Assembly (NCBI GenBank): GCA_016181765.1
Contig: JACOYR010000006.1
Span: 31,664 to 95,663, forward strand
DNA length: 64,000 nucleotides
Reading direction: 5' to 3'
DNA from: Parcubacteria group bacterium
GTDB taxonomy: Bacteria > Patescibacteriota > Patescibacteriia > UBA2169
Shown: one piece after another, positions 3,829 through 50,731 of the stretch
Numbering within the stretch: position 1 is the stretch's first letter
How the letters are laid out: every line of letters begins with the position of its first letter
Notes under the pieces: model-generated
Databases searched by the model: none
What the model was told of the DNA's origin: nothing
What the model saw: the letters and a program-made list of their open reading frames with translations, nothing else
Made by a program: the position numbers and the translations under genes

Positions 3829-3900
3829 CGGTTGATTTTTCTATTATGGTATGATACGGTATGATGTACTTTTGATGCGCGTACCCCTCTCCCCCGGCAC

Positions 3901-3977: not shown

Positions 3978-3978
3978 C

Positions 3979-4053: not shown

Positions 4054-4055
4054 AA

Positions 4056-4087
4056 AAACACCCGCCTTACCGGCGGGTGTTTTTTGA
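4056..4087. terminator. bidirectional rho-independent terminator
   Basis: aaaaaacacccgcc-ttac-cggcgggtgttttttg; A-run and T-run flank a 10-bp GC stem; serves tRNA pair (+) and HU gene (-). Confidence 0.6.
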
Positions 4088-4094
4088 TTTCAAA

Positions 4095-4460: not shown

Positions 4461-4511
4461 AATTCTAACTCCATTGTATACCAACCGGCCGCGCCTGGCA
4501 ACACGGGCGGC

Positions 4512-5309: not shown

Positions 5310-5334
5310 GGAGTATACCAGATGAGCCGCAATT

Positions 5335-6981: not shown

Positions 6982-7020
6982 CGGGATGGTAAGATGATAC
7001 TAAAATGGTTTTGTCTTTGC

Positions 7021-7147
7021 GGTTTCTCGCTTGGGCCCGAGCGTAGCGAGGGTTAAGCGAGAAACCGAGAGGAGTAGGCGGATGAAGGGTGGAGCGGGCG
7101 AGCGCAAGCTCGCACGCGCAACCCGCAATCCGACTACGACGAGACGA
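7021..7147 (+). ncRNA. candidate structured RNA element (copy A) immediately 5' of tRNA-Gly; unassigned family
   Basis: 10-bp hairpin ggtttctcgc/gcgagaaacc enclosing conserved loop ttgggc...gttaa; conserved gagaggagtaggcg and ccgactacgacga motifs; internal GCAA-tetraloop hairpin; family of 4 with covarying stems. Confidence 0.45.
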
Positions 7148-7221
7148 GCGGGTATCGTATAGTGGCAATACCACAGCTTTCCAAGCTGTTGCCGGGGGTT
7201 CGATTCCCCCTACCCGCTCCA
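7148..7221 (+). tRNA. tRNA-Gly (anticodon TCC)
   Basis: Acceptor gcgggta/tacccgc, anticodon stem acagc/gctgt, loop tttccaa, T-arm ggggg-ttcgatt-ccccc, CCA encoded. Confidence 0.9.
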
Positions 7222-7267
7222 GGATTCCATTGATTTCATCACTGATCTGTGATACATTTACCGCGTT

Positions 7268-7534
7268 ATGCAAACTGCAGTGCAAACATCCCCAACAGTG
7301 GCGGTGCCAAAAAAAATCCGTGAAAAAGGATTTGTAGTGTTGGGTTTGGACGAGTACGAGGCGCTGAAGAGCGCGGCAATCCCCACCTACCATCTTACCG
7401 GAGCCGCTGCGGAAGAATTGGACCGCGAGGTGGAACAGGCCCTCAAGGAAGACCGGGAAGGCAAGACAATAGAGGCTTCTTCAATACGTGAAGCAATGTC
7501 AGTCTATGATGCACAAGGAGGTATCAAGGATTAA
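7268..7534 (+). CDS. Phd/YefM-type antitoxin (putative)
   Basis: GFVVLGLDEYEALKSAAIP pattern; directly upstream of and overlapping a RelE-like toxin gene; imperfect palindrome atcactgatctgtgata at 7237-7253 as possible operator. Confidence 0.5.
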   Translation: MQTAVQTSPTVAVPKKIREKGFVVLGLDEYEALKSAAIPTYHLTGAAAEELDREVEQALKEDREGKTIEASSIREAMSVYDAQGGIKD

Positions 7535-7781
7535 ATACAGTCCGCAATTTTTACGATCAGCCAAAAAACTCCCCCGCCATATTCAGACAAAGCTGGAGGC
7601 GCGGGAGTTGATTTTTAAGAATAACGCTTTTGACACCCGTCTTGAAACGCATAAATTGCACGGCAAAAACCGCGAGGCCTGGGCATACTCCATAGATCAT
7701 AGTTATCGGGTTAAATTTTTATTCAACGACAACGGAAGTGTGTTGTACATCAAGGCCGGCACGCACGATGAGGTGTATTAA
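7509..7781 (+). CDS. RelE/ParE family toxin
   Basis: ...KLPRHIQTKLEARELIF...HKLHGKNREAWAYSIDHSYRVKFLFNDNGSVLYIKAGTHDEVY matches RelE/ParE fold signature; low GC. Confidence 0.7.
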   Translation: MHKEVSRIKYSPQFLRSAKKLPRHIQTKLEARELIFKNNAFDTRLETHKLHGKNREAWAYSIDHSYRVKFLFNDNGSVLYIKAGTHDEVY

Positions 7782-7850
7782 TTAAACGCACCCGCTCCAC
7801 AATAAAACTTTTTTTAAATTTGCCGACCATTTCGGTGACGGCGCGCCAAA

Positions 7851-8627
7851 ATGAAAACATCTTTTAATGAAAAACAGTTAGAAATTTTGACAGAGCTTGG
7901 ACTTAGTAAAATCCAGGCGATTTTGTATTTAACCTCGCTAAAACACGGAATATTATCTGTTTTGGAATTATCTAAAATCACCAAGATAAATAGACAACAA
8001 ATTTACTCAGAAGCAGAAAAATTAGTTGATCTTGGAATTTACGAGCTGACGCGGAAGCAAGGAAGAAAATATATCCCCGCAAATCCAGCGAAATTAGTAA
8101 AAGTTGGAAAGAAAAAAATTGATGAGACCGAAAAAATTTTAACAAAGTTGTCGGTAATCTTGCCTGAATTTGAGGCTTTTTCAGAACCAAAGAAAAATAA
8201 AGTTGTTGTGAAATATTTTCAGGGTTTGCCAAAAATTAAAGAAACGTATGAAGAAGAATTGGCGGCTTCTAAAAATACAGAAGTTTTATCTCTTGCCGGT
8301 TCAATTGACAATATTTTTGAATTTTTCACTGAATCATACTGGGATAAGTGGAATAAAAAATTTATAAAACATGACTCAAGAAGTCGGATGCTAGTCCACA
8401 ATTCTGATATTGCTCGCAAGACCGCCGAGGATGACAAACGATACAAACGAGAAACTCGGTGGCTTCAGGATTTTCCTCTTAAAGTAAATATTGATGTTTT
8501 CAATAATACTGTTCTTATTGTCTCTTTTCACGACGAAATTGCTATTTGGATTGAAAGCCATATGTTGGCACAATCCTATCGCATAATGTTTAATACTCTT
8601 TGGGAAGTCGCAAAACCCTTCAAATAA
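7851..8627 (+). CDS. TrmB-like HTH transcriptional regulator (low-GC)
   Basis: N-terminal winged-helix pattern LTELGLSKIQAILYLTSLKHGILSVLELSKITKINRQQIYSEAEKLVDLGIYE; about 33% GC versus about 60% flanks. Confidence 0.5.
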   Translation: MKTSFNEKQLEILTELGLSKIQAILYLTSLKHGILSVLELSKITKINRQQIYSEAEKLVDLGIYELTRKQGRKYIPANPAKLVKVGKKKIDETEKILTKLSVILPEFEAFSEPKKNKVVVKYFQGLPKIKETYEEELAASKNTEVLSLAGSIDNIFEFFTESYWDKWNKKFIKHDSRSRMLVHNSDIARKTAEDDKRYKRETRWLQDFPLKVNIDVFNNTVLIVSFHDEIAIWIESHMLAQSYRIMFNTLWEVAKPFK

Positions 8628-8791
8628 TAAAAATGTTGTAAAGAAACTTACAACTTTTATACCTTAAATTTCCTTGTATTTACTGACTTATTTGGCGCCT
8701 TCATGGCGTTTTTTCTTTTTTTATTACGCGAATTGGCTAATCGTGAAAAAATCATAGTGAGCAGTACAAACCGCAAACAAAGGAGATTGTT

Positions 8792-8992
8792 ATGCCGCCA
8801 AGTGGATTCAGTGAGAAAGCCGTGAAGGGCGCCCTTGTCTTCGTGCAAAGTTGTTACGAAGACCTGCTGGAGGAAGTTCGCTCCGGAAAGCACGCAAGCT
8901 ACGAGGAGGGTATCGAGTTCGAGATCACACAGATCGAGAAAGCCCTCATAAAGCTCCACATCGACGCCGAGGGGAACCTCGTCGAGCGATAA
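8792..8992 (+). CDS. small hypothetical protein (66 aa)
   Basis: Strong SD aaaggagattgtt before ATG; terminator-like hairpin plus T-run at about 9010-9045. Confidence 0.4.
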   Translation: MPPSGFSEKAVKGALVFVQSCYEDLLEEVRSGKHASYEEGIEFEITQIEKALIKLHIDAEGNLVER

Positions 8993-9121
8993 ATTCAACA
9001 GACCCGAGCAAGTCTTAAAACTGCTCTTTTTTATTTGTCTAAATTTTCATACGGGTTGGCGAGGTTTTATTGATGGACATGTTTAAGGTATGCTACCATA
9101 CATGCATAATCACAAACTCCT

Positions 9122-9856
9122 ATGAAACAAAAAATGCTGTCAGCCATATTTATCCTGCTCTTCCCGCTCTTCGGCGTTGCGTACTACTACAAGCTGCTGG
9201 GAGAAAGCACGGACATTGATAAGACGTTCCTGACCCTCTCAACATTCCTATTCGCGCTCTTTACCGGATTTTTTATTTCACGCCAAGCCAGCCGGTATGG
9301 TGAGATACGCAGGCTGACCGCTGATTTTGACGGCAACATGTCCGGCATCTACCGCTTGTTCCAGCATCTGGGAAAAGACGCGCAACACGCGTCCGGAGGC
9401 ATCATCAAAGAGTACTACAAAAAAATAACCAAAAACGGCTGGGACTACTCATTCACCCATAAAACAACCACCATCACCGACCTGCATGCTCTGCTTGAAA
9501 AAACCACCGACAAAAACACGGGCGGCAGCATGGCAAGCATGGCCGCATCCCGGATTATAGTAGGCCTGCAGGAACAGCAAAAAACGAGAAAAAATCTGGT
9601 TACCCTGCGCGAAGAAAGGATTCCGGGATTCCAATGGATGCTCATCTGCATCCTTACCGCAATTCTCGTGCTCACGGTTTCCGCGATCCCGTCAGCGGCG
9701 ATTGTGCTCGGCTCCGCCGTAAAGGCCGCGTTCATCGTATCCATCCTGGTGGTGGTGGCCCTGCTGAAACAACTAGACAATCTTACGCTGTTTACGGGCG
9801 CTATCGGCGAACACTCGGCGCGGGATGTGGTTGAAATTATTGAGGGGAAAAAATAA
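9122..9856 (+). CDS. hypothetical membrane protein (DUF4239-like topology)
   Basis: Two N-terminal and two C-terminal hydrophobic helices flanking a soluble middle. Confidence 0.45.
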   Translation: MKQKMLSAIFILLFPLFGVAYYYKLLGESTDIDKTFLTLSTFLFALFTGFFISRQASRYGEIRRLTADFDGNMSGIYRLFQHLGKDAQHASGGIIKEYYKKITKNGWDYSFTHKTTTITDLHALLEKTTDKNTGGSMASMAASRIIVGLQEQQKTRKNLVTLREERIPGFQWMLICILTAILVLTVSAIPSAAIVLGSAVKAAFIVSILVVVALLKQLDNLTLFTGAIGEHSARDVVEIIEGKK

Positions 9857-9866
9857 TCGCAGTCTT

Positions 9867-10619
9867 ATGCTCGCCTACGCAATCATCGCAACACTCGCCG
9901 TAAGCCTCATCTCGCTCACCGGCATCCTGCTCCTCGCAAAGGAGGCGCACGCAAAAACATGGATCAAGAGGCTCATCGGGCTTGCCATCGGAACCCTGCT
10001 CGGAGCCGTGTTTTTTGACCTCCTGCCCGAAGCCATGGAATCGTTTGATGAGCCGCACACCGCATCTCTGATTATTCTTGCGGCAATCGTGGGGTTCTTT
10101 GCCATAGAAAAAGCAATCCACTACCACCACTGCATGTGCGATGACGAGGAAAAAGGGCACCGCAAGACCCACCTCATCATAAACAACCTCATCGGCGACG
10201 GACTGCACAATTTTGTTGACGGCACTATTATCGCGAGCGCGTTCCTGGTGGATGTACGGCTCGGCATCAGCGCCACGATCGCGGTTGCCTTGCATGAAAT
10301 TCCGCAGGAAGTTGCCGACTTCTCCATTCTGGTGTATGCCGGAATGTCGCGGCTCAAAGCAGTGCTCTACAATCTGCTCTTCGGCCTGACGAGCGTGCTC
10401 GGCGCAATCCTGGTGTTCGTCTTTTCCGACTCCGTTGAGAGCCTGGTGCCCATACTCCTTGCGGTTGCAACCGGAAACTTCCTGTACCTTGCCATGGCAG
10501 ATCTGGTTCCTGAACTGCACCACGAGCAGAACCCCCGTAAAGTCTGGATGCAGCTGGTGTGGGTTGGTTTGGGAATTCTGATCTTGTATGCCATCGGCCA
10601 AGTGGCGGGGAACGAGTAA
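9867..10619 (+). CDS. zupT: ZIP family zinc transporter (ZupT-like)
   Basis: HNFVDG and HEIPQE metal-binding motifs; 8 predicted TM segments. Confidence 0.8.
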   Translation: MLAYAIIATLAVSLISLTGILLLAKEAHAKTWIKRLIGLAIGTLLGAVFFDLLPEAMESFDEPHTASLIILAAIVGFFAIEKAIHYHHCMCDDEEKGHRKTHLIINNLIGDGLHNFVDGTIIASAFLVDVRLGISATIAVALHEIPQEVADFSILVYAGMSRLKAVLYNLLFGLTSVLGAILVFVFSDSVESLVPILLAVATGNFLYLAMADLVPELHHEQNPRKVWMQLVWVGLGILILYAIGQVAGNE

Positions 10620-10638: not shown

Positions 10639-11714
10639 ATGCGCAAAAATATAGCACTGCTCACCTTGTCCATACTCGCGGCAGCCACGCTCGCGGCTGA
10701 TGCTGCGGCCGCGCAGGAAACCGTACCCGGATACGAAGACAAAATCTTCAAAGCCCGGGTGATTGAAATTCTTGACGAACAGACAATCACCGATGAGTAC
10801 ACGGGCACGAACGCAATGCAGCAGAACCTCCGCGTGAGAGGCCTTGAGGGCGAGTGGAAAGATGCGGAGTACGAGACTGAAGGCATCTCGGACGTGATTA
10901 TCTCCGAGAGCAAGACGCACGACGTTGGAGAAACCGTGTACGTCAACCAGAGCATACGGCCGAACCAGGAAGATCGGTTCTTTGTGATGGACCACGTGCG
11001 CACCAAGTCCTTGTGGTGGATGGCCGCGCTCTTTGCGGGAGCAGTGCTGGTTGTCGCGCGATGGAAGGGCCTGCGCGCGCTCGTGGTGCTCGCAGCCACG
11101 TTCGCCATTATCATCAAACTTATTATTCCCCAGATTATTGCGGGCCAAAGCCCGCTTGCGGTAAGCATCTTCGGATCAATCAGCATCCTCTTTCTCGCCA
11201 TCTTCGTCACCGAGGGCATCAGCAAAAAAAGCTGGGTCGCGTTCGGAGCTATTTTGATCGCGCTGCTCGCGGTCATCGGCCTCTCGGAGTGGTTTACCGC
11301 TCTTGCCAAACTCTCCGGCGTTGCGACCGAAGAGGCAATGTACCTCATGAGCGTCGGGGAGTACGCGTTCAACCTGCGCGGGCTTTTGCTTGCGGGCATG
11401 GTCATTGGAGCCCTGGGTGTTCTGGATGACACGGTGGTGAGCCAGGTCTCGCTCGTCAAGGAACTCGTCAAAGCAAAGCCGGACATGCGGCGCGCGGCTG
11501 TGTTTAAGACAGCCATGCGGGTGGGCACGGACCATATCAACGCCATCATCAATACCCTGTTCCTCGCGTACGCGGGCGTCTCGCTCCCGCTCCTGGTGCT
11601 CTTCGTGATTTACGACCAATGCGCACGCTCGCCGGCTCAATCGCGCTCGTGCTCTCCGTGCCCATTGCCACAGTACTCGCGGTTGCCGCGTTCTGCCGCG
11701 GCCGAGCATCTTAA
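10639..11714 (+). CDS. YibE/F family membrane protein, interrupted by -1 frameshift at about 11617
   Basis: MRKNIALLTLSILAAATLAADAAAAQE signal peptide then YibE/F-like TM region; after ...LFVIYDQ the family-consistent C-terminus (MRTLAGSIALVLSVPIATVLAVAAF) continues in another frame; gaccaatgcg would be restored by one extra A. Confidence 0.55.
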
Positions 11715-11734
11715 AAGTAGTGTAGAGCGAACCC

Positions 11735-12270
11735 ATGAACACGCGATCCATCGGAATCAAGTACTACCTGCTCAAGGAGATCAACCCCCTCATCCGGCTC
11801 ATCATTGTGTCGGACATTTTGATCGTTGGCGGCACGGCCATGCTCGCCCCGATTTTCGCGCTCTTCATTGAGGGGTACATCCGCGGGGGCAACGAGCAGG
11901 TGGCTGGCGTTGCAGTGGCCCTCTTCCTCATCACCAAGAGCCTGTTCCAGATCCCGGTTGCAACCATGATTGACCGCATCCGGGGGGAAAAAGACGATTT
12001 TGTGATCCTGGTGCTGTTCTCTCTGTTAATGTCCTTGACCCCGCTTCTGTACCTCGCGATCAGCGAACCCTGGCACCTCTACGTGGTGCAGGTGGTGCTC
12101 GGATTCTTTACGGCCATGACCTTCCCCTCGTTCATGGCAATCTTTACGCGGCACATTGACCGCGCCGTACACCATTGGATTCCACGCGCTCATCGTGGCT
12201 GTGGTGTCCATCTCAACGGTGGGCTCGCTCATGCTCGTCTCCATAAAGCCCTACCTGCAAAAGCGCTAAG
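11735..12270 (+). pseudogene. MFS transporter remnant (C-terminal half only, frameshift/deletion near 12160)
   Basis: Only about 6 TM helices with LFQIPVATMIDRIRGEKD loop motif; ORF breaks after TRHIDR and family-like end ...TIGFHALIVAVVSISTVGSLMLVSIKPYLQKR is in another frame. Confidence 0.5.
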
Positions 12271-12304
12271 CGCATCCGCGCAATTCACTACATCACGCCA
12301 TGTG

Positions 12305-12313
12305 TGGTATACT
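12305..12313 (+). promoter_or_regulatory. TGGTATACT box 10 nt upstream of ATG 12324
   Basis: seen in sequence; member of recurrent pattern. Confidence 0.35.
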
Positions 12314-12323
12314 ATATGGTACC

Positions 12324-13802
12324 ATGGCAATTTTTGACGCGGTGCTAACGTTTGTCCTTGATGTGTACCGAGAGCTCCAGCTCGCGGGCGACCCTTTTTA
12401 CGCTGCTCTGATTCTTGTAGTGAACGGGCTCTGGATTCCGATTGTGTTCATCATGTTCGCGAACGCGAAAATCGCGTGGCAGGAATGGCGAATGGGCGTA
12501 TACCACGATGCCAGGCGGCGCTTCATCCTGCTCGCCATTGACGTGCCCCGCCTGAACGAGCAATCCCCCAAAGCCGTGGAAAACATATTCACGCAGCTGC
12601 ACGGCGCGCTCCCGGGCCACAACACCAAGTACCAAGAGTGGTGGCTCGGAAAAACTCCGGATTACTTCAGCGTTGAGCTGGTGTCCATTGAGGGCTATGT
12701 CCAGTTTTTGGTGTACACGCAGGAAGAGTACCGCGACATGGTGGAGAGCGCGTTCTACTCCCAGTACCCGGACGCCGAAATCACGCAGGTGGAAGACTAC
12801 GTGTACGGCCAAAACGGGGAGTTCCGAAACATTGTCTTCCCGAGCAAGGAGTACGATCTGCTCGGCTGTGAATTCGTGTCTACCCGGCCAAGTGTGTACC
12901 CTATCCGCTTGCACATAGACTTTGAACATTCACTCTCCCAGGAATTCAAAGACCCCATGGCCGCACTGCTTGAGAGCATGAACAAGATCGGCCCCGGGGA
13001 GCAATTCTGGTTCCAGTGGGTCATTACCCCGGAGTACGACGAAAACTGGCAGGTCGCATCAAACCGGGAGGCTATGAAAATCGCCGGAAAAAAAATAGAG
13101 GCTTCGGAAAATGTGGTTGATAAAGCAGTGGGCGCCCTCGTCAGCCTCATTGACGCAATCGGCACTGCGGCGTTCCCGTTCTACAACCAGAGCGAGGAAT
13201 CGCGAGAGCTGGATCGGGAACTGCCGAGCTTAATGCTCCACCTGACCCCGGCCGAGCAGCGCCGGATTGAAGCAATCCAGATGAAAGCGGACAAGCACGG
13301 CTTCTGGACAAAATTCAGGTACATCTACATCGCAAAAAAGGGCATTGCCTCCAAGGCGCGGGGTTTGGCGCCTATTACCGGCGCCATGAAGCAATTCAGC
13401 GCGCTCAATCTGAACACGCTCAAGCCGCACAGGTATACCAAAACATGGGGGTTATATTATATGATGGTGGAAAAGCGCGTGGCGCGCCGACAGAACAACC
13501 TCATCCGCGCGTACCAGGAGCGGGCCCGCAGCGCCGGCTCAAACGGCATTGTGCTGAACACCGAGGAGCTGGCAACGCTTTACCACTTCCCGACCGAGGT
13601 GGTAAAGGCTCCGCTCGTTTCCCGCACCCTGTCCAAGCGCGGGTCAGCTCCTGTCTCCTTGCCCGTGGAAGGGGGGCCCCGGACATTGCGCACGTCCCTG
13701 GACGCACAGCCCGCGCAAGGCGCGCATTCCCGCCCCGCCACAGTCCAGGAGGCGCCAGCATCGCACCACGGGCAAGCCCCGAGCAACCTGCCGTTTGTAT
13801 AA
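12324..13802 (+). CDS. hypothetical membrane-anchored protein (2-3 N-terminal TM helices plus about 400-aa soluble domain)
   Basis: Long ORF with consistent codon usage; no recognisable catalytic motif, no Walker A. Confidence 0.5.
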   Translation: MAIFDAVLTFVLDVYRELQLAGDPFYAALILVVNGLWIPIVFIMFANAKIAWQEWRMGVYHDARRRFILLAIDVPRLNEQSPKAVENIFTQLHGALPGHNTKYQEWWLGKTPDYFSVELVSIEGYVQFLVYTQEEYRDMVESAFYSQYPDAEITQVEDYVYGQNGEFRNIVFPSKEYDLLGCEFVSTRPSVYPIRLHIDFEHSLSQEFKDPMAALLESMNKIGPGEQFWFQWVITPEYDENWQVASNREAMKIAGKKIEASENVVDKAVGALVSLIDAIGTAAFPFYNQSEESRELDRELPSLMLHLTPAEQRRIEAIQMKADKHGFWTKFRYIYIAKKGIASKARGLAPITGAMKQFSALNLNTLKPHRYTKTWGLYYMMVEKRVARRQNNLIRAYQERARSAGSNGIVLNTEELATLYHFPTEVVKAPLVSRTLSKRGSAPVSLPVEGGPRTLRTSLDAQPAQGAHSRPATVQEAPASHHGQAPSNLPFV

Positions 13803-21097: not shown

Positions 21098-22456
21098 ATG
21101 GCAAAAATAAAAACAACCAAACTCCTCGCCTTTCTCCTGGTGCTCCCGCTCTTGGGCCTCGGGTGCAAAGGGTCGGGAACCGTATCCAAAGACGCGCTTG
21201 CGCCCGTAACGTTAAAGTACTGGCGCGTGTTTGATGAACCGAGCGACTTTACGGACGTGATCGCCGCGTTCAAACAGACCTACCCCCACATCAACGTAAG
21301 CGTGCGCAAACTGCGGATTGAGGAGTACGAAGATGCCATCATCCGCGCCCTGGCAGAGGGCAACGGGCCGGACATCATCTCTGTGCACGCGGCCCAGCTC
21401 AAGCAGTACCAGAATCTGCTCTCCCCTATGCCGCAAAGCGCCACCCTGCCCGCAACCATCATTGAGAACAACAACAAGAGGTCTGTAATGCTCCAAACCG
21501 TCAAACTGCCGAGCAGCCAAGACCTGCGGACCGCATTCATTGATACCGTCGCAACCGACGTCATGTTGGGCGGGCAAATCTACGGCCTGCCGCTCTCGGT
21601 TGACACTATGGTGCTCTACTACAACCGCCAGCTCTTAAACCAGGCAAACGTCCCCGCAGCTCCCCGCACATGGGAGGAGTTTAAGGAAGCGGTCAAGGTT
21701 CTCACCACCCAGGACCAGAACGGCAACATCATCCAGTCAGGCGCAGCCCTGGGAGGGGCGCGCAACATCAACCGCAGCCCGGACATCCTCGCGGCGCTTA
21801 TGATGCAGAACGGCACGGAGATGACCCGGTCGGGCCGCGTCGCCTTTAACGAAGTTCCGGCGAGCCTCTCAAGTTCGTCCGTGGCGCCCGGGCGGGACGC
21901 GCTGCGCTTTTACACGGACTTCGCGTCCCCAGCCAAGGAAGTGTACGCCTGGAACGAGAACCTGCCCGAGTCTTTGGACGCATTCGCAAACAGCCAGCTC
22001 GCGCTCTTCTTTGGGTATGCCTACCACTTGCCGCTCATCCGTTCCCTGGCTCCGGGCATTGACCTTGGCATCACCAAACTCCCCCAGATAGCAGCCGCCG
22101 GCCGCCAGGTGAACATTGCCAATTACTGGTTTGAGGGCGTCACCAAGCAGTCCGAACATAAGGACGAGGCATGGGGCTTTATCCAGTTCGCCGCATCAGA
22201 ACAAGGCGCGGCTCTGTTCCTCGCAAAATCCGGCAAGCCGACCGCCCTGCGCAGCCTCATTGCCAGCCAGCGGGCCAATCCGGAACTGGCCCCGTTTGCG
22301 GACCAGCTCTTAACGGCCCAAAACTGGTACCACGGCGGAAACGCCGCTGCCATGGAAGAAGCGCTCCGCACCGCCATTAGCCAGGTGGTCGCGGGGAGCC
22401 TGGAGCCTGACGCCGCCATTGACCAGGCCGCCCAAAATGTCGGCTTAACGTACTGA
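21098..22456 (+). CDS. extracellular solute-binding lipoprotein (ABC transporter SBP family 1, sugar-type); no permease or ATPase nearby
   Basis: Lipobox LLGLGC; 452 aa; stop overlaps start region of next gene. Confidence 0.7.
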   Translation: MAKIKTTKLLAFLLVLPLLGLGCKGSGTVSKDALAPVTLKYWRVFDEPSDFTDVIAAFKQTYPHINVSVRKLRIEEYEDAIIRALAEGNGPDIISVHAAQLKQYQNLLSPMPQSATLPATIIENNNKRSVMLQTVKLPSSQDLRTAFIDTVATDVMLGGQIYGLPLSVDTMVLYYNRQLLNQANVPAAPRTWEEFKEAVKVLTTQDQNGNIIQSGAALGGARNINRSPDILAALMMQNGTEMTRSGRVAFNEVPASLSSSSVAPGRDALRFYTDFASPAKEVYAWNENLPESLDAFANSQLALFFGYAYHLPLIRSLAPGIDLGITKLPQIAAAGRQVNIANYWFEGVTKQSEHKDEAWGFIQFAASEQGAALFLAKSGKPTALRSLIASQRANPELAPFADQLLTAQNWYHGGNAAAMEEALRTAISQVVAGSLEPDAAIDQAAQNVGLTY

Positions 22457-22457: not shown

Positions 22458-23720
22458 ATGCCGTACCTCCTGCCCATCGTAGCGCTGCTCGCACTGCTGG
22501 TTCCCGAACCCGCAGCAGCAGACTCCCTGCTCCGAATCTGCACCGCAACCGGCAACTGCGGGGTGTGCGATGTGGTGGCAACCGCAGTCACGCTCGGCAA
22601 GTGGCTCATTACCGGATCAGCCGGACTAGCCTTGGTGGTGATTGTGTGGGCATCAGTCGGGCTCGCAACGAGCGCCGGAAACCCGGAAAAAATAGGGGAA
22701 GCCAAAAAACAGGTCGTGTGGTCCGTGCTCGGAGTGGGATTGGTGTTCGCGGCGTTCTATTTGGTGATGTGGATTGTCATTGCGTTCGCAAACCCCTCCA
22801 ACCAGTTCAAGTACGCAAAAAATCCGTCCGATGCCGCGGTTGCCGAAACCGGAGGCTTGGCCGGTTTTCTGGGCGGGACCGCATGGTGGAACCTGTGCAG
22901 CGAGGCTGATTTGCGCGCAAACGGCGACCGAGCAAGGTCCGCGGACAATATAACCGCGGACTGCAAGTACTGGGGAGACGGCACGCCCTGCAAGACAAAC
23001 CGCAAGAGCATCTGCTTGAGCGGAACGTGCACGCCAGTCGGAGACAGCAAAGTTCAGGCGAGCATAACCGCGCTCGGCGGATACCCCCTTCCAACAGACC
23101 CGTCCGCGTGCGACTATGTGGCCGCGGTTGACCGCGTGTTTGAAAACTACTCGTGCCAGCCGAATGCCGCATGCAATCCGGAAAAAATAGAAAAGGGGTT
23201 CTGCCCTCCCGGAGGCACAGTGTGCTGCGAGCCGTCCACCTTCACCCCGCGGGTGCGGCCAACCGCGGCCCCAGAGGTTTTGGTTCCAACGGCGCCCGGA
23301 GTACCCGGAGCTGGAGGTGATGAAATGGCAATCCGCACGACACTCGGAAATGCGGGCATAGAAGTCAATAAAGCCCCTTGTCCGGACATCCTTACCTCAA
23401 CCGACTGCACGTCAGTCGCCGGACTGTCGCAGAGCACGGTTAATAAACTGATTGAAGCCCACACCACATACAACGGGCGCATCTACATTACCGGAGGGAC
23501 CGAGCGAGGCCCCCATGCCCAAAACACCACGCACGGCAATCAGAACGTGGTTGATATCCGCAACAAGCAAGAGGCGCGAGATGCCCTGGATCAGATGGGG
23601 CTCGTGCGCATGACCTCGTTTTCAAACGGCTATGCGAGGGGCTCCAACTGGTACATCTGCGACACCAACGGCCAGGCTGTAAGCTGTGGTACTGCAAGCC
23701 ACTTACACGTAGAATTTTAA
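22458..23720 (+). CDS. pilin-like (TrbC/VirB2-type) N-terminal domain fused to Cys-rich linker and C-terminal M15/VanY-like zinc peptidase-like domain
   Basis: N-terminus ...VTLGKWLITGSAGLALVVIVWASVGLATSAGNPEKIGEAKKQVVWSVLGVGLVFAAFYLV resembles the downstream pilin paralogs; C-terminus has ...ITGGTERGPHAQNTTHGNQNVVDI and terminal ASHLHVEF (SxHxxGxAxD-like and HxH motifs). Confidence 0.5.
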   Translation: MPYLLPIVALLALLVPEPAAADSLLRICTATGNCGVCDVVATAVTLGKWLITGSAGLALVVIVWASVGLATSAGNPEKIGEAKKQVVWSVLGVGLVFAAFYLVMWIVIAFANPSNQFKYAKNPSDAAVAETGGLAGFLGGTAWWNLCSEADLRANGDRARSADNITADCKYWGDGTPCKTNRKSICLSGTCTPVGDSKVQASITALGGYPLPTDPSACDYVAAVDRVFENYSCQPNAACNPEKIEKGFCPPGGTVCCEPSTFTPRVRPTAAPEVLVPTAPGVPGAGGDEMAIRTTLGNAGIEVNKAPCPDILTSTDCTSVAGLSQSTVNKLIEAHTTYNGRIYITGGTERGPHAQNTTHGNQNVVDIRNKQEARDALDQMGLVRMTSFSNGYARGSNWYICDTNGQAVSCGTASHLHVEF

Positions 23721-23737
23721 CCAACCCTAGAGAGCCT

Positions 23738-24088
23738 ATGATCACAAAACTATTCTTCACCAGCCTCGCTATCCTGCTCCCCGCGGCACAAGCCCTGGCA
23801 CAGAACAGCTACGGCAGTGCCGATCTCAATCCGCTCGGAAGAATTGAGGGCCCGCAGGAGCTCTATGGCCGCTTTTTGCAATTTTTCCTCGGGTTCGTTG
23901 GGGTCGGCGCGCTCGGGTACTTCATCATCGGCGGCATTATACTCTTGATGTCCCAAGGGAACCCTGAAAAGGTAAAAATGGGCAAGGACACGCTGGTCTG
24001 GGCAATCATCGGCATGTTCGTGGCGTTCGCAAGCTACATCATCCTGCGGTTCGTGCTGGAGATCATCATCACCCCGACCGGCGCGTAG
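23738..24088 (+). CDS. pilin-like small membrane protein P1 (TrbC/VirB2-type architecture)
   Basis: Signal peptide, short variable region, then two-TM core ...GGIILLMSQGNPEKVKMGKDTLVWAIIGMFVAFASYII. Confidence 0.6.
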   Translation: MITKLFFTSLAILLPAAQALAQNSYGSADLNPLGRIEGPQELYGRFLQFFLGFVGVGALGYFIIGGIILLMSQGNPEKVKMGKDTLVWAIIGMFVAFASYIILRFVLEIIITPTGA

Positions 24089-24174
24089 TTATCAACAGAG
24101 TGATTTTGCAAAAAATGCCGCAGTGTTGTATAATTCATGCATCATAAACCAATTATTTATTAAACTTTGATACT

Positions 24175-24696
24175 ATGATTACGCGAACAACAAAACTGGC
24201 ATGGAAAATGATTTTGAGCGGGTTGTTTTCCGCAAGCTTCCTGGCGCTCGCGCTTGTTCCGGCTACAACGTCTGCCGCCGTAGGTGACGACTGCACGGAC
24301 ACCAAATCGTGCCCCACCGGGGGAGAAGTGTGCATCCGCAACGCTAATGACGGAACTCCCGGAGATGCAACTGATGCCTTTTCTTTCGTCTGCACCACCC
24401 CGCAGGCCACCCAGTATGGTTTAGGCGAGTTTACTGATGTCGGTCTCGGCCAGACCCAGGACCTCAAGGGCTCTATCGCGAACATCATCAACATCATCCT
24501 CGGATTCCTCGGGATTGTGGCGGTCATCATCATCCTGGCCGGCGGATTCAAGTGGATGACAGCCGGAGGCAACGAGGACAAGGTCGGCGAATCGCGGCAG
24601 ATGATCATCCAGGGCATCATCGGATTGGTGGTGGTGTTTGCGGCCTGGGCAATCGCGAGCTTCGTGGTTTCCAACCTCCAATCAGCAACCACCTAG
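24175..24696 (+). CDS. pilin-like protein P2 with Cys-rich N-terminal ectodomain
   Basis: Conserved core IINIILGFLGIVAVIIILAGGFKWMTAGGNEDKVGESRQMIIQGIIGLVVVFAAWAIASFVV. Confidence 0.65.
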   Translation: MITRTTKLAWKMILSGLFSASFLALALVPATTSAAVGDDCTDTKSCPTGGEVCIRNANDGTPGDATDAFSFVCTTPQATQYGLGEFTDVGLGQTQDLKGSIANIINIILGFLGIVAVIIILAGGFKWMTAGGNEDKVGESRQMIIQGIIGLVVVFAAWAIASFVVSNLQSATT

Positions 24697-24727
24697 CCGC
24701 CTCCCCCCTCTCTCCTGCCTATGCACA

Positions 24728-24763
24728 ACCCCCGCCAAATCAGCGGGGGTTGTTTGTTGCGTC
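24728..24763 (+). terminator. rho-independent terminator after P2
   Basis: caacccccgc-caaatca-gcgggggttg + tttgttg; followed by TGGTATACT box at 24777-24785 before P3. Confidence 0.5.
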
Positions 24764-24814
24764 CAAATCCTGTTTTTGGTATACTATACACACTGTTATT
24801 ATCCACAAAGGTCT

Positions 24815-25528
24815 ATGATGAAAACTATAAGCATTTTGGCGTCTGGGGCCGCATTTTCAATCCTGCTCCTCCTTGCGCCATCGGCAACAAATGCCGCTCC
24901 TGTTGATGAAGATGGGGTCTGTCAGCTTTTTCCGGTTACCGCAGACGAAGCATGCGGGCCGGGTTTGGTATGCGAACAAACGCCGACAAGCGCCGCGGGC
25001 CAAGGAGTGTGTTGTGCGCCGGGGTCAGACAACTGCCGTTTCGGGTTGGGAGAACAATCCACGTTCACAACCCTGGGTTTGGGCAAAAATGATGACCTTA
25101 AGGGGACTCTGGCGACCATTATCAATATAGCGCTCGGGTTCCTTGGCATTATTGCCGTGATTATCGTGATGTTCGGGGGGTTCAAGTGGATGACTGCGGC
25201 TGGAAACGAGGAGCAGGTGGGAGAGGCGCGGAAGCTGATCGTGGGGGGCGTGGTCGGACTGCTGGTGATATTCATGGCATGGGCAATCGCGAGCTTTGTG
25301 GTATTATTACGCCTCGCTATACAACCATATGCACCACACCATGACGCCACGCGCCGTTCAAGCCGCAAAATGCATGCTTGCCACGAGCATGCTGGTTCTG
25401 CTCGCTGTTGCAATCGCGGCACCTTCGTCAACTGGCGCGCAAGTTGCGGATCCCCGGGCTGCGGACCAGCAGTATGGCCTGGGAAGCGCCAGCAGCTTCA
25501 CAAATGTCGGCCTGGGCAAAGAGGATGA
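24815..25528 (+). CDS. pilin-like protein P3; conserved end is at about 25303 but no stop codon follows, so the ORF reads into the next gene in +1 frame
   Basis: Core ...IINIALGFLGIIAVIIVMFGGFKWMTAAGNEEQVGEARKLIVGGVVGLLVIFMAWAIASFVV then non-pilin-like tail; 3' 210 nt nearly identical to P4. Confidence 0.55.
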   Translation: MMKTISILASGAAFSILLLLAPSATNAAPVDEDGVCQLFPVTADEACGPGLVCEQTPTSAAGQGVCCAPGSDNCRFGLGEQSTFTTLGLGKNDDLKGTLATIINIALGFLGIIAVIIVMFGGFKWMTAAGNEEQVGEARKLIVGGVVGLLVIFMAWAIASFVVLLRLAIQPYAPHHDATRRSSRKMHACHEHAGSARCCNRGTFVNWRASCGSPGCGPAVWPGKRQQLHKCRPGQRG

Positions 25529-25757
25529 CCTTAAGGGGACTCTAGCGACCGTCATCAACATAGCGCTCGGGTTCCTTGGCATCATTGCCGTGATTATCGT
25601 GATGTTCGGAGGGTTCAAGTGGATGACTGCGGCAGGCAACGAGGAGCAGGTGGGAGAGGCGCGGAAGCTGATCGTGGGGGGCGTGGTCGGACTGCTGGTG
25701 ATATTCATGGCATGGGCAATCGCGAGCTTTGTGGTAAGCTCCTCGGCTCGGATATGA
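25341..25757 (+). CDS. pilin-like protein P4
   Basis: Signal peptide MTPRAVQAAKCMLATSMLVLLAVAIAAPSSTGA; same core as P3; stop codon TGA lies inside repeat R2. Confidence 0.65.
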   Translation: MTPRAVQAAKCMLATSMLVLLAVAIAAPSSTGAQVADPRAADQQYGLGSASSFTNVGLGKEDDLKGTLATVINIALGFLGIIAVIIVMFGGFKWMTAAGNEEQVGEARKLIVGGVVGLLVIFMAWAIASFVVSSSARI

Positions 25758-25804
25758 AAAAGAATACTTTTTCATATCACTCGCTCTACGTCGCTAATAA
25801 AACA
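25737..25804. repeat. hairpin repeat R2 (copy of R1) between P4 and P5
   Basis: agctcctcggctcgg-gatatgaaaaag-aata-ctttttcatatc-actcgctctacgtcgctaataaaaca; supplies P4 stop and ends 5 nt before P5 ATG. Confidence 0.7.
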
Positions 25805-25809
25805 ATGCT

Positions 25810-26208
25810 ATGCCGATAGTTAAATCGTTTTCCTTAAGAATCAACCTGATCGTCGCGGCGGGCATGCTCGCATTCGCGATTCTCGCGCCGGTTCCGGCGC
25901 TCGCCCAAACCGACCCGTTCGGCGTGGAAGATGCGGCCAGGATCAACGTGGGCGAAGAGCGGGACCTTAAATTTGCCATTGCGAACATCGTGAACGTAGT
26001 ACTCGGATTTTTGGGAATCCTTGCGGTCATCATCATCATGTATGCGGGATTCAAATGGATGACCGCGTCCGGAAACGAAGAGCAGGTGGGCGAAGCCCGA
26101 AAAATGCTCTTGCAGGCGGTCATCGGCTTAATCATCATCATGGGAGCCTGGGTCATTATAAACTTCGTCACCGGAGAATTCGGCAGAGCGGTCCAGCTTG
26201 AAAACTAA
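25810..26208 (+). CDS. pilin-like protein P5
   Basis: Core NIVNVVLGFLGILAVIIIMYAGFKWMTASGNEEQVGEARKMLLQAVIGLIIIMGAWVIINFV. Confidence 0.65.
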   Translation: MPIVKSFSLRINLIVAAGMLAFAILAPVPALAQTDPFGVEDAARINVGEERDLKFAIANIVNVVLGFLGILAVIIIMYAGFKWMTASGNEEQVGEARKMLLQAVIGLIIIMGAWVIINFVTGEFGRAVQLEN

Positions 26209-26236
26209 CCGGCCCCGGGCCGCTTACGCAACACGT

Positions 26237-26905
26237 ATGACCGCACGCCGCACTCTCATCGTAGCACTCCTCGTTTCCGGATTGGCGGGATTCGCGGCAA
26301 GCCCGCACCCGGCATTTGCCCAGCGCAGCGCCGCCGGGGAAAACGCGCTCAATTTTTTGGATGCGACCGCGGAAAAGGGCGGGCTCTCAAGCGGCATCAA
26401 AAACGCGGGATTCAGCAGTGAGGACGCGGTGCTCGGCATTGTGGGCAACATCATCAACGTCATCCTTGGATTCGTGGGAATCATCTTCTTTGTCCAGATG
26501 TTCTACGCGGGCTTCAGGTGGATGTCGTCCGGCGGCAACGAGGAGGTCGTAACCGAAGCCAGGCAGACCATCAAGAGCGCAGTCATCGGCATTGCGGTGG
26601 TGTTTGCCGCGTTCGTGGTTACGAACTTTACCTTGAATCAAATCGCAAGCATCACTGGGCCCACGCGGCCATCCGGGTTGCCCCCTGAAGATGAGAGCTA
26701 TGACCCAAGTTTAGATGCCCCGGGCGGAGACTTAAATTTCGGCGAACTACCTCCGCCGCTTGGGACATGCATCTATCCAAAAAGCGGCGAATGTGATGCC
26801 GGAAACACCGGGTGGACTGACCTGCAAAGTGATGTATCTGAAAATGCTTGCATGACTCTCGCTGCTTCGGCTTGTGGCGACCCTGATTTGCACGACTGGT
26901 ATTAA
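26237..26905 (+). CDS. pilin-like protein P6 with C-terminal Cys-rich tail (alternative start 26198)
   Basis: Signal peptide MTARRTLIVALLVSGLAGFAASPHPAFA; core GFVGIIFFVQMFYAGFRWMSSGGNEEVVTEARQTIKSAVIGIAVVFAAFVV; tail with 5 Cys. Confidence 0.6.
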   Translation: MTARRTLIVALLVSGLAGFAASPHPAFAQRSAAGENALNFLDATAEKGGLSSGIKNAGFSSEDAVLGIVGNIINVILGFVGIIFFVQMFYAGFRWMSSGGNEEVVTEARQTIKSAVIGIAVVFAAFVVTNFTLNQIASITGPTRPSGLPPEDESYDPSLDAPGGDLNFGELPPPLGTCIYPKSGECDAGNTGWTDLQSDVSENACMTLAASACGDPDLHDWY

Positions 26906-26911
26906 TATACT

Positions 26912-27340
26912 ATGAAATACGCCGCTCTAATATCACTATTCTTGGCAACCCTGTCTATAACTCTGTTTTCTTTTCAAGTCGTGGCTCATGCCCAAAATAC
27001 TGATACCAAACTCGCGAGCGCGGTTGGCGATGCCCGTGGAAAACTCAATGCCATTGGCTCAATCACAGGCTTGGGACGGGTTGACGTTTCAACTGACGCT
27101 GGTCTGTACGAAAAAATCGCGGCAGTCATCAATATCCTGCTCGGGTTTGCGGGCGTAATTGCGACCATCTATATAATTGTTGCGGGAATCCAGTGGATTA
27201 CGGCAAGCGGCAATGAGGAACAGGTTACCGAAGCGCGCGGAAACATAAGGAACGCGGTCATCGGCTTGGTGGTTATATTCCTCGCGTTTGTCATCACCAA
27301 TTTCGTCACCAAATCACTCATTGACGTAATCGGCGGCTGA
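26912..27340 (+). CDS. pilin-like protein P7
   Basis: Core INILLGFAGVIATIYIIVAGIQWITASGNEEQVTEARGNIRNAVIGLVVIFLAFVITNFV. Confidence 0.65.
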   Translation: MKYAALISLFLATLSITLFSFQVVAHAQNTDTKLASAVGDARGKLNAIGSITGLGRVDVSTDAGLYEKIAAVINILLGFAGVIATIYIIVAGIQWITASGNEEQVTEARGNIRNAVIGLVVIFLAFVITNFVTKSLIDVIGG

Positions 27341-27356
27341 CGCTAAAAACTTCCCT

Positions 27357-27989
27357 ATGAAAATCTTTCTCACAGCCATTGCCTTAACAGGCCTCCTCGC
27401 AGCCGCGGCTCCGGCGCACGCGGTATCCGGCGTCAACCAGCTCAAGAACAACCTCGGCATCATCGGAACCGAAACCGGGCTCGGCACCCAAGGGGACTCA
27501 AGTCTTCCGGAAAAAATCGCGGCAATTGTGAACATAGCGCTCGGGTTTGTAGCGCTCATCGGGGTGATCATGATCATCTACGCGGGCTTTAAGTGGATGA
27601 CAGCCGGCGGCAACGAGGAGCAAATAAAAGAAGCCAAAGGCCATATCCGCAATGCGGTCATCGGCATTGTCATTATTATGCTCGCGTTCGTAATTGTCAA
27701 TTTTACCGTGAACAAGCTCTCGGAAACCGTGGGTGTGGGCGAGGGCGGAGGAGGAGGGGGAAACGTCATCAGCGGACTTTGTGAATTTGATGTTGGCGGC
27801 GGGCTTATGTTCTGCGTACCTCGGTCAGAATCAGAGTGCCAAACCCTTGGGGGAACCTATAACGCGCAGTGCGAAAAGCAGACTTACTGCAGGTGCGCAA
27901 GCGGATGCGGGGCAAACAACTGCCTTATTATGACCGAAAATGCATGCGAAAGGAAGAGTGGAGCGCTTAGCGACGCGCCCTGTAATTGA
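27357..27989 (+). CDS. pilin-like protein P8 with Gly-rich linker and 10-Cys C-terminal module
   Basis: Core IVNIALGFVALIGVIMIIYAGFKWMTAGGNEEQIKEAKGHIRNAVIGIVIIMLAFVIVNF; GEGGGGGGN linker; CEFDVGGGLMFCVPRSESECQTLGGTYNAQCEKQTYCRCASGCGANNCLIMTENACE. Confidence 0.65.
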   Translation: MKIFLTAIALTGLLAAAAPAHAVSGVNQLKNNLGIIGTETGLGTQGDSSLPEKIAAIVNIALGFVALIGVIMIIYAGFKWMTAGGNEEQIKEAKGHIRNAVIGIVIIMLAFVIVNFTVNKLSETVGVGEGGGGGGNVISGLCEFDVGGGLMFCVPRSESECQTLGGTYNAQCEKQTYCRCASGCGANNCLIMTENACERKSGALSDAPCN

Positions 27990-36167: not shown

Positions 36168-37265
36168 TTACTGCTTGATGGGCATCACCAGGTACAAATA
36201 CCCCTCGTCATTGTTGGGCGTAAACACTCCCGGGCTTGCGGAGCCCGAAAGCTGGATTGCGACTTCGCTGGTATGGATGGCCGAAAGCCCGTCCAGCACG
36301 TACCGATAATCAAATACAATGTCAACGTCCCCGCCCTCAATCTTGGCGGGCAGCTCAACCGTGTTCTCGCCGAGCGCCGAGGCGGATGCGGACACCATGA
36401 TGCGGTCCGAAGAAAACTGGAAGCTGACGTGGTTTAAGCCCTGCCGGCAGAAGAGGGACGCGGACTTGATGGCCCGCACCAGCGGCTCCTTGTCAATCAC
36501 CACCTTTGTGGTGCTGGCCTTGGGAATGATTTCCCGGTAGTTCGGGAACGTGCCCGAAATCAGGCGGCTCAAGAGCTCCACGTCGCCAATAGAGAACAGC
36601 ACCTGGTTCTCGCTTGCGCTTAAGGTGAGCTCACCTTCCTCGCGGGAGAGGATGCGGCCGAGCTCGCTTGCGGCGCGCGCCGGCACAATAATGCTCTGGG
36701 TCTTCTGGGAAGGAGCCTTGAGCGCTACCGAGCGTTCCGCGAGGCGGTAGGAATCCGTGCCCACTAGAGTCACTTTGTTCCCCTCAAACGAGAGCAGGAC
36801 CCCCGAAAGCTCGGGCCGCGCATCGCTTGCCGAAACCGAGAACAGCACCTGCGAGAGTGCTCCGAAAAAATCGCTCCCGGGCATCACGGCAGTCGGCGTT
36901 CCGTCCAAAACAGGGATCACGGGAAACTCTTCCGCGGGGAGACCGTGAATCTTGGTGCGGGCGTTGCCGGAGCGGATTTCAAGGTGCTCCCCGGAAAGCT
37001 CAAGCGACACCGCAGAGCTCTCAAGCAATCCGACGTAGTCGTTGAACAGCCGCCCTGCCACCGTAAACGTCCCTTCCTGCTCAATTTTGCCGCGGATGGT
37101 TGCGGTGATGCCTATCTCAAGGTTTGTGGCCGAAAGCTTGAGCGCTCCCTCGCGGGCTTCAAGCAGCACGTTTGAGAGTATGGGCAAGGTCCCGCCTTTG
37201 GCCGCAATCGGCGCAACTTTGGCCAAAGCGTGCGCTAAGTTTTCCTGGGTGCATGAGAGCTTCAT
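36168..37265 (-). CDS. dnaN: DNA polymerase III beta sliding clamp
   Basis: MKLSCTQENLAHALAKVAPIAAKGGTLPILSNVLLEAREGALKLSATNLEIGI typical DnaN N-terminus; about 366 aa. Confidence 0.85.
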   Translation of the reverse strand: MKLSCTQENLAHALAKVAPIAAKGGTLPILSNVLLEAREGALKLSATNLEIGITATIRGKIEQEGTFTVAGRLFNDYVGLLESSAVSLELSGEHLEIRSGNARTKIHGLPAEEFPVIPVLDGTPTAVMPGSDFFGALSQVLFSVSASDARPELSGVLLSFEGNKVTLVGTDSYRLAERSVALKAPSQKTQSIIVPARAASELGRILSREEGELTLSASENQVLFSIGDVELLSRLISGTFPNYREIIPKASTTKVVIDKEPLVRAIKSASLFCRQGLNHVSFQFSSDRIMVSASASALGENTVELPAKIEGGDVDIVFDYRYVLDGLSAIHTSEVAIQLSGSASPGVFTPNNDEGYLYLVMPIKQ

Positions 37266-37340
37266 GCAGTAATAGTATCGCATCCATGCCAAAAACGGAA
37301 CGCACATGCGTTCCACAGGCTATCCCCAAGACGTTACCCG

Positions 37341-50685: not shown

Positions 50686-50731
50686 GACAAATTGTTCAGT
50701 GTTAAACTTTAAAAATACCTCTTTCTTACAA

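Follow-up and report, generated by a model that had tools for sequence, protein, structure and literature searches.

How Patescibacteria carry a secretion apparatus or a pilus across cell walls is a question made sharper by what is known of their machinery. According to two earlier studies, their type IV secretion systems (T4SS) and pilin arrays are essential for epibiotic life, and homologues of VirB1 are mostly missing (PMC12102498, PMC10633639). Here, we analyse a gene (22458..23720, + strand) in a stretch of 64,000 nucleotides of a Parcubacteria group bacterium (assembly GCA_016181765.1, contig JACOYR010000006.1, positions 31,664 to 95,663), which we call the window. The gene encodes a VirB2-like pilin hairpin followed by a Cys-rich stalk, a Pro-rich linker, and a C-terminal domain with the motifs of zinc peptidases of the LAS group (M15, M23, M74, and Hedgehog). 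Does it bring a wall-opening enzyme to the pilus? The evidence below favours a peptidoglycan hydrolase of LAS type that is tethered by a pilin and linked to the pilin/T4SS system, a reading to which we give a probability of about 0.6.

The open reading frame (ORF) starts with ATG, encodes 420 residues, and has precisely the coordinates given in the initial annotation, which had been made from the sequence alone and had described a pilin-like N-terminus fused to a Cys-rich region and an M15/VanY-like peptidase domain. We found seven full-length relatives of the protein. The closest are 69%–74% identical and lie in syntenic loci, where the order NTP_transferase gene, substrate-binding protein (SBP) gene, fusion gene, short pilin genes is retained (L007/L008, L021, and L023); a further related locus (L024) is cut off on its upstream side. 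The named relatives come from metagenome-assembled genomes (MAGs) of Parcubacteria or Patescibacteria. Since full-length homologues share both identity and synteny, the fusion gene is real and conserved, and we rejected the possibility of a spurious ORF.

The N-terminal third of the protein has the organisation of a pilin (all its features are on the + strand). A signal peptide (residues 1–21, MPYLLPIVALLALLVPEPAAA, cut before D; 22458..22520) has a hydrophobic segment at residues 3–21 and a putative AxA-type site read from the sequence, and the homologues align with it. The mature N-terminal tail (22521..22586) carries the pattern C28-x5-C34-x2-C37, whose three cysteines are invariant in the eight close homologues (8/8), and is predicted to lie outside the cell by analogy with the VirB2 family. 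The hairpin itself (residues 44–110; 22587..22787) consists of two hydrophobic transmembrane (TM) helices, at about 44–74 and about 86–110 (with the hydrophobic segment of the second at 90–108), joined by a short, basic, Lys-rich loop (NPEKIGEAKKQ) that should be cytoplasmic. Residues 54–106 match the Pfam T4SS_pilin model PF18895 above its threshold (E 1.6e-7, 31.7 bits for a cut-off of 26.6), and the same hairpin gives weaker matches to TrbC in Pfam (0.0013) and to the pilin-like model NF045849 in NCBIfam (1.5e-5). A hidden Markov model (HMM) of the pilin paralogues of the window scores the fusion protein at 2.6e-26. The resemblance to the pilin paralogues noted initially, including the signal peptide and the two hydrophobic helices, is thus borne out. 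VirB2 proteins usually have their loop inside and both termini outside the cell. Given this topology, everything after residue 110 should be extracellular, which fits the 15 cysteines found there, and the Lys-rich loop and Cys-rich flanks agree with termini placed outside the cell.

Beyond the hairpin, a Cys-rich, presumably extracellular stalk (residues 111–262; 22788..23243) was delimited using the alignment of close homologues and the positions of its cysteines. It contains a conserved module, WWNLC...TADCKYWGDGTPC, and an insert (residues 195–262) present only in the closest relatives, and has no match in Pfam or the PDB. The region is indeed rich in cysteines, even if there are 11 (147, 169, 178, 186, 191, 218, 233, 239, 249, 256, and 257) and not the 12 counted before; with the three of the N-terminal tail (28, 34, and 37) and the four of the C-terminal domain (308, 317, 401, and 410), the total is 18. 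A Pro-rich linker follows (residues 263–285, TPRVRPTAAPEVLVPTAPGVPGA; 23244..23312), for which the predicted local distance difference test (pLDDT) is below 50. The full-length AlphaFold model, made with eight sequences, is poor (pLDDT 57), with low confidence in the stalk, and was kept out of the fold search. The remaining 135 residues (286–420; 23313..23717) form the putative zinc hydrolase domain, which we defined by family profile, structural model, and conservation.

This domain belongs to a large family. A profile built from seven close homologues and searched against 1.84 billion representative proteins retrieved 1,672 clusters (at 50% identity) with E≤1e-3, of which 567 have E≤1e-10. 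The members listed are mostly about 300 residues long, with a median of 304 for the 155 that were retrieved, and carry the domain at their C-terminal end. An N-terminal PF18895 was identified in 47 of the 69 members scanned, and 53 of 79 GTDB loci are pilin-fused. Searches of Pfam, NCBIfam, and PHROGs with the query and 80 members gave no match for the domain, and searches of PDB sequences with the single protein and with the family profile gave no relevant one. What is new here is an unannotated family of LAS-like putative hydrolases. It comprises at least 1,672 clusters and merits an entry in Pfam.

The polar residues expected of a zinc enzyme are strongly conserved in the family alignment of 80 sequences. 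The proposed metal-binding or catalytic residues fall in two motifs: T345-G-G-T-E349 ... H353 ... H359-x6-D366 (23490..23555) and H415-L-H417 (23700..23708), the latter being the HxH of LAS enzymes, located in the last β-strand, three residues before the C-terminus. E349 and D366 are found in 80/80 sequences, H353 in 79/80, H359 in 78/80, H417 in 76/80 (Asp in 4), and H415 in 70/80 (Trp in 7), so that the six residues are conserved at 88%–100%. G351 is near-invariant, and C308 and C317 are present in 80/80 and 76/80 sequences, respectively. Conserved His/Asp ligands in a homologue alignment had been set as a test of the peptidase proposal, and they are clearly there, as are the two strings on which it was built (ITGGTERGPHAQNTTHGNQNVVDI at residues 344–367, and ...GTASHLHVEF at the C-terminus). 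The active-site pattern of LAS enzymes, H-x(3-7)-D before H-x-H, is present and in order. The spacing between H359 and D366 is x6 in the window protein and x7 in 52 of the 80 members. In terms of its alignment, the signature of the family is the LAS pattern, H-x(6-7)-D then H-x-H, complemented by an invariant Glu that is specific to the family and by one additional His.

For the C-terminal domain, AlphaFold2 run on the alignment of 80 sequences gave a confident model (pLDDT 89.9, predicted template modelling score 0.84) of α/β type. It shows, in order, an N-terminal helix, a disulfide loop, a helix (40–52), a strand (58–61), a short helix, a strand (79–83), a helix, and two strands (113–118 and 130–134). 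H359 is placed just ahead of the second strand, D366 inside it, and H417 in the last strand. This order of elements and this placement of ligands would correspond to those of the M15 core and of Hedgehog-type enzymes. An M23/lysostaphin type was rejected, since the model is α/β and not β-rich and the spacing is x6-7 and not x3. When compared with models of viral proteins (BFVD) using Foldseek, the domain gave matches with E of 4e-3 to 0.1, probabilities of 0.99 to 0.6, and TM scores of 0.39–0.49. The list is dominated by proteins annotated as 'cell wall hydrolase', 'Peptidase M15A/M15/M15B', and 'murein endopeptidase K', and by tape-measure proteins; at least 12 of the top 37 matches carry an annotation of M15, peptidase, or cell-wall hydrolase, and the best match has E 4e-3 and probability 0.99. 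The search of the PDB gave no significant match, with four M15C L-Ala-D-Glu peptidases among the weak ones. The match to an M15-type fold is therefore borderline.

Sequence profiles gave a less favourable picture of membership in M15. None of the M15 family HMMs of Pfam, including VanX, VanY, M15_2, M15_3, and M15_4, matches the C-terminal region of the query (VanY touches 2 of the 80 members, with E of about 0.07), and NCBIfam gave no M15 match for the domain family. We built M15 profiles from Escherichia coli K-12 MepK, from an M15A set of 135 sequences, from 11 T5-like M15C phage endolysins, and from the sequence of 1LBU; the search for MepK homologues gave only Enterobacteriaceae sequences more than 80% identical, which are of little use as a profile. 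The hhalign comparisons with MepK, M15A, T5-like M15C, and 1LBU were all non-significant (Prob <1%), and the one with the T5-like profile gave nothing at all. Targeted hmmsearch runs, made both ways, gave marginal results: the best E was 0.026 among 101 sequences, compared with 2.2 for a reversed-sequence control. The M15A and 1LBU alignments of hhalign, and most of the weak hmmsearch alignments we inspected, pair the motifs in the same register, even if none is significant: ITGGTE of the new family with I(T/N)SGYR of M15A or ITVNGGFRS of 1LBU, sHGxGxxVD with SxHxxGxAxD of M15A, and HxHV with HTHV of M15A or FVHVD of 1LBU. Since these tests did not establish membership in M15, the domain is best treated as a new family, one that looks and probably works like a LAS/M15-type zinc peptidase. 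The term 'M15/VanY-like' holds as a description of motifs and fold hints, not as a family assignment. In summary, what the initial annotation observed is confirmed, and what it concluded is partly supported.

Independent evidence on function comes from the proteins that carry the domain outside pilins. We scanned one genome per GTDB species with a pattern and tblastn, starting from a six-sequence subset, an approach biased towards members with [IL]TGGTE[GSA]GH. The scan returned 80 loci, about 63 of them in Candidate Phyla Radiation (CPR) genomes or unclassified MAGs and 17 in Actinomycetota, including Streptomyces, Kitasatospora, Nonomuraea, and Spongiactinospora (L074, L082, L094, L101, and 13 others). 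The actinomycetotal proteins match the CPR profile with E from 1e-15 to 7e-9 (database size set to 1.8e9). They have one of two architectures: a signal peptide, two PG_binding_1 repeats, and the domain, or a signal peptide, a GH25 muramidase (E 1e-38), two PG_binding_1 repeats, and the domain. Their C-terminal domain is unannotated in Pfam and NCBIfam. In all the actinomycetotal proteins that we read, H417 is replaced by Asp (HWD[VI]), as it is in 4 of the 80 CPR sequences. Among CPR members, P0091 combines the pilin hairpin and the domain with an SLT transglycosylase. Because it stands behind peptidoglycan-binding repeats in the place of a catalytic domain, or is partnered with a lysozyme, the domain shared by Actinomycetota and CPR is very likely a peptidoglycan hydrolase. 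The proposal of a cell-wall hydrolase thus receives strong independent support from the GH25/PG_binding_1 context and the SLT fusion, even if membership in M15 could not be demonstrated. One of the actinomycetotal copies (L104) is carried on a Streptomyces plasmid. Some of the MAG records with the domain are titled 'archaeon' (L034, which has no pilin match) or 'uncultured Bdellovibrionales' (L049, L077, L078, L080, and L083, each with a pilin fusion); they are probably CPR contigs that were wrongly binned or named.

The link to T4SS comes from the neighbours of the fusion genes in other CPR genomes. We clustered the ORFs lying no more than 5 kb from the 53 pilin-fused loci and found a conserved same-strand order: a 228-residue protein, a PrgI-like protein, a 212-residue protein, a VirB4-like ATPase, a 145-residue TM protein, a 330-residue secreted protein, the pilin-domain fusion, and a 407-residue protein. 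The PrgI-like protein (about 145 residues) is present in 24 of the 53 loci, the 212-residue protein in 29, the VirB4-like ATPase (about 603 residues, at most 5 kb upstream of the fusion) in 33, the 330-residue secreted neighbour in 39, and the 407-residue one in 42. After the operon come yidC and rnpA, on the other strand, and then dnaA and dnaN; these genes adjoin it in 23–31 of the 53 loci. In the locus L031, Pfam identifies P-loop_TraG (1e-29), PrgI, and PF18895. Operon proteins of 228, 136, 352 (secreted), and 406 residues in this locus (2299-9628), and in more than 30 similar ones, have no Pfam match. The fusion-bearing operon is the origin-proximal T4SS cluster of Quinonero-Coronel et al. 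(PMC12102498), a work which places CPR T4SS clusters near dnaA and reports that most of the genomes with VirB2 have no VirB1.

Most pilin-fused loci lack a second pilin gene within 5 kb, as searched with the HMM of the window paralogues, and the 'VirB2' of the operon is therefore often the fusion itself. A LAS-type wall enzyme in such clusters has a precedent, since the essential T4SS cluster of S. epibionticum includes a large protein with a Hedgehog/DD-peptidase fold, adjoining VirB4 (PMC10633639, Table S2). The Patescibacteria T4SS and pilin literature that we searched makes no mention of a pilin-fused wall enzyme or of a pilin with an enzyme-like C-terminus.

These observations suggest a mechanism. 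The protein would be exported by Sec, and its pilin hairpin would insert in the membrane, while the stalk and linker would hold the hydrolase in or beyond the wall. H359, D366, and H417 may bind the zinc ion, and H415 may activate a water molecule, perhaps helped by E349 and H353, which are specific to the family; the enzyme would then cleave a peptide or amide bond in the stem peptides or cross-links of peptidoglycan. Through its hairpin, the enzyme would be brought to the places of VirB2-like pilins, at the membrane assembly site or on the pilus surface. A local opening of the wall for the passage of the pilus or T4SS, i.e., the job of VirB1, could thus be done by a pilin-tethered enzyme, and the version with a long stalk might reach the wall of the partner. 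One could go further and regard the VirB2-like pilin beside VirB4 in many Patescibacteria T4SS operons as an enzyme carrier that displays the LAS-type peptidase, the filament being armed to cut the wall of the producer, of the host, or of both. Every copy, or a subset at the tip or base, would display the peptidase; the long-stalk version of the window clade would have been duplicated or relocated to the head of the array for attack on the host wall; and the sharing of the domain with the wall hydrolases of Actinomycetota alone would reflect exchange with host lineages. If true, this would explain the lack of VirB1 in these systems. Taken jointly with all its parts, we regard this extended scenario as unlikely.

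In the window, the fusion gene is the first of nine tandem PF18895 genes (22458-27989). The other eight, identified with Pfam, the local HMM, and DNA repeats, are all on the + strand, at 23738-24088, 24175-24696, 24815-25528, 25296-25757, 25810-26208, 26198-26905, 26912-27340, and 27357-27989. Arrays of 2–11 pilin genes have already been described in Patescibacteria (PMC12102498). Two pilin cores (25064-25303 and 25497-25736, in the genes 24815-25528 and 25296-25757) are 93% identical in DNA, which points to a recent tandem duplication; the identity ends just past '...ASFVV', where the first copy has no stop and continues for about 75 codons, into the beginning of the following gene. Four paralogues (24175-24696, 24815-25528, 26198-26905, and 27357-27989) have Cys-rich, putatively extracellular add-ons of their own, two as N-terminal inserts and two as C-terminal tails of about 90–100 residues, with no Pfam match outside the pilin core.

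Upstream of the array, and conserved there, is the gene of an SBP_bac_1 lipoprotein identified with Pfam (21098..22456, + strand, lipobox LGLGC). Its stop codon and the start of the fusion gene are separated by one nucleotide (TGA-c-ATG), and the order NTP_transferase, SBP, fusion is kept even though the C-terminal domains of the relatives are only 34%–75% identical. No ABC permease gene was found near the SBP gene in the window. The coupling of the two genes may reflect a functional link, e.g., the capture of wall fragments. The flanks of the window encode housekeeping functions: GalU-like, MurB, purine biosynthesis, YebC, RuvC, TyrRS, a class A penicillin-binding protein (PBP1A), dnaN, FtsH, and GyrA. 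The organism makes peptidoglycan, as MurB and the class A penicillin-binding protein are encoded nearby. The genes rnpA (47457-47798), yidC (48032-48763), and dnaN (36168-37316, minus strand) are in the window, where an HMM of dnaA found no match. The GC content is lower at 8001-10000 (0.44) and 50001-52000 (0.42) than elsewhere (about 0.55–0.60). The window copy belongs to a sub-family of seven proteins with the extra Cys-rich stalk and a spacing of x6, and not x7, between H359 and D366. A distant orthologue, P0007, stands alone, without a pilin array. In its 1.03-Mb contig (L006), an ORF of 744 residues with no Pfam match (11260-13494) has its first 10 nt in common with the end of the fusion gene and is followed by DivIC, rotamase, and FtsE/FtsX.

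Several observations weigh against a T4SS-associated zinc hydrolase in the window organism. The HMMs of the VirB4, PrgI, and 330/407-residue partners found no T4SS machinery in the window, where the fusion gene accompanies galU, SBP, and pilin genes instead of a T4SS operon; an operon hidden beside rnpA, yidC, or dnaN was rejected, because the HMMs of all the conserved partners found nothing there. The hairpin could then be a mere membrane anchor, and the protein a housekeeping autolysin for the growth or division of its own wall, with no link to a pilus or T4SS in this organism. The cell-envelope neighbours of the gene (GalU-like, MurB, PBP1A) fit this view, as does the position of P0007 upstream of DivIC and FtsE/FtsX. 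However, in the window clade, the gene always stands first in an array of pilins, most of the other CPR loci have it inside a VirB4/PrgI operon, and the PF18895 score of its N-terminus is that of a true pilin, not of a generic pair of TM segments. We find an autolysin quite unlikely. The position of the enzyme could instead serve offence, if the protein were a bacteriolytic effector acting against hosts or competitors, on the pilus or freed by cleavage of the linker, with the co-transcribed SBP capturing the products. The stalk and Pro-rich linker (about 175 residues) could extend the head past the wall of the producer, the SBP lipoprotein gene is closely joined to the fusion gene and keeps its place in relatives, and outside CPR the GTDB locus scan found the domain only in Actinomycetota; Nanosynbacter grows parasitically on Actinobacteria, according to PMC12102498. 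Yet no immunity gene, release site, or T4SS is evident in the window, no permease genes adjoin the SBP gene, and the canonical copies resemble parts of the operon that serve structure or assembly. Of all the readings, this is the one we deem least probable.

Other difficulties concern the activity of the domain itself. Neither its sequence nor its profile significantly resembles that of a characterised peptidase, as searched in Pfam, NCBIfam, PHROGs, and the PDB and with hhalign (Prob <1%). The proposed zinc ligands were placed from the sequence and the order of elements, and the loop that bears H353 and H359 is the least confident part of the model (pLDDT of about 73). The window protein has Y338 and R341 (23469-23480) where the family has Cys in 73/80 and 67/80 sequences; this looks like a disulfide pair gone from both sides at once, and leaves the protein without a bond that most members seem to have. 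The loss is confined to the window copy, since its nearest relatives, P0001 and P0002, have both cysteines. An appendage of 310 residues on every subunit would also be unusual for a VirB2 filament. The domain might be a non-catalytic, zinc-stabilised binding module, i.e., an adhesin or a peptidoglycan- or ligand-binding head on a minor pilin. The N-terminal domain of Hedgehog retains a LAS-like zinc site and serves as a ligand. The failure to show membership in an enzymatic family agrees with such a module, and other paralogues of the array have assorted Cys-rich add-ons that resemble modules of surface variation. The pilin arrays of CPR have themselves been interpreted in terms of host range or adhesion diversity (PMC12102498). 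Still, the conservation across CPR and Actinomycetota of six polar residues, including the HxH and the invariant Glu, exceeds the needs of a structural zinc site, and in the actinomycetotal proteins with a signal peptide and PG_binding_1 the domain fills the usual catalytic slot. A binding module is thus improbable in our view, ranking below the autolysin and above the effector.

We therefore return to the pilin-tethered hydrolase. Because the domain is fused to the operon pilin in most of the CPR loci sampled, and is reused in Streptomyces wall proteins, the fusion is a concrete candidate for the missing wall-opening activity of Patescibacteria T4SS and pili. It is worth following up because it gives a testable answer to the question of how this apparatus crosses cell walls.

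The closest characterised enzyme is 1LBU, the zinc D-Ala-D-Ala carboxypeptidase of Streptomyces albus G (MEROPS M15A), in which ...ITxxGG..., H-x6-D, and H-x-H-V are collinear with the motifs of the new domain, although the alignment is non-significant. This weak hhalign alignment pairs H154, D161, H195, and H197 of 1LBU with H359, D366, H415, and H417 of the fusion protein. Both 1LBU/M15A and the new domain are small α/β domains that end shortly past the last His. The N-terminal part of 1LBU resembles peptidoglycan-binding domains, and the new domain comes after PG_binding_1 repeats in Actinomycetota. M15A proteins and E. coli MepK (M15A/DUF882) are among the Foldseek matches. Against this, there is no significant similarity to M15A or 1LBU (hhalign P 0.05–0.4), and none of the M15 models of Pfam matches. 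M15A has a substrate-binding Arg in SGYR(S), where the new family has the invariant TGGTE, and the new family has the extra near-invariant His (H353) and, in most members, an H-to-D spacing of x7. The N-terminal helix and disulfide loop (C308–C317) are specific to the new family. The best structural neighbours that we found are the M15 endolysins of phages (TM scores of 0.33–0.49), such as the T5 L-alanoyl-D-glutamate peptidase, LysECD7, that of RB49, and the 'peptidase M15' of Marinomonas phage YY. They are of similar size (about 130–160 residues) and have the last metal-binding His 3–5 residues before the C-terminus (...DGGHVELV in T5, ...SHLHVEF in the fusion protein). However, the endolysins are soluble and released upon lysis, whereas the fusion enzyme would be tethered by a pilin, and hhalign finds nothing with the T5-like profile.

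Among secretion systems, SEML1_0007 of Ca. Southlakia epibionticum has a 'Hedgehog/DD-peptidase' domain assigned by DPAM (951–1105) and is encoded beside a VirB4-like gene (PMC10633639, Table S2). Unlike the fusion, it is longer than 1,100 residues, lacks a pilin domain, and has the Hedgehog/DD-peptidase domain at its extreme C-terminal end; the two are likened by fold and gene context. The evolved VgrG/PAAR proteins of type VI secretion follow a common principle, a structural subunit extended by a cell-wall-degrading domain, even if their machinery and folds are unrelated and the likeness is one of analogy. The closest functional parallel is with the VirB1-type hydrolases (VirB1, TraG of pIP501, and PrgK of pCF10), which have the job proposed here, the local opening of the wall for a T4SS; the CPR orthologues of the fusion are likewise encoded inside the T4SS operon. 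VirB1, TraG, and PrgK are separate proteins with SLT, lysozyme, or CHAP domains, none of which was found in the fusion protein with Pfam, whereas here a LAS-like fold stands on the pilin. A wall hydrolase associated with a T4SS is thus of a kind already known; what is new is a LAS-like family fused to the pilin itself.

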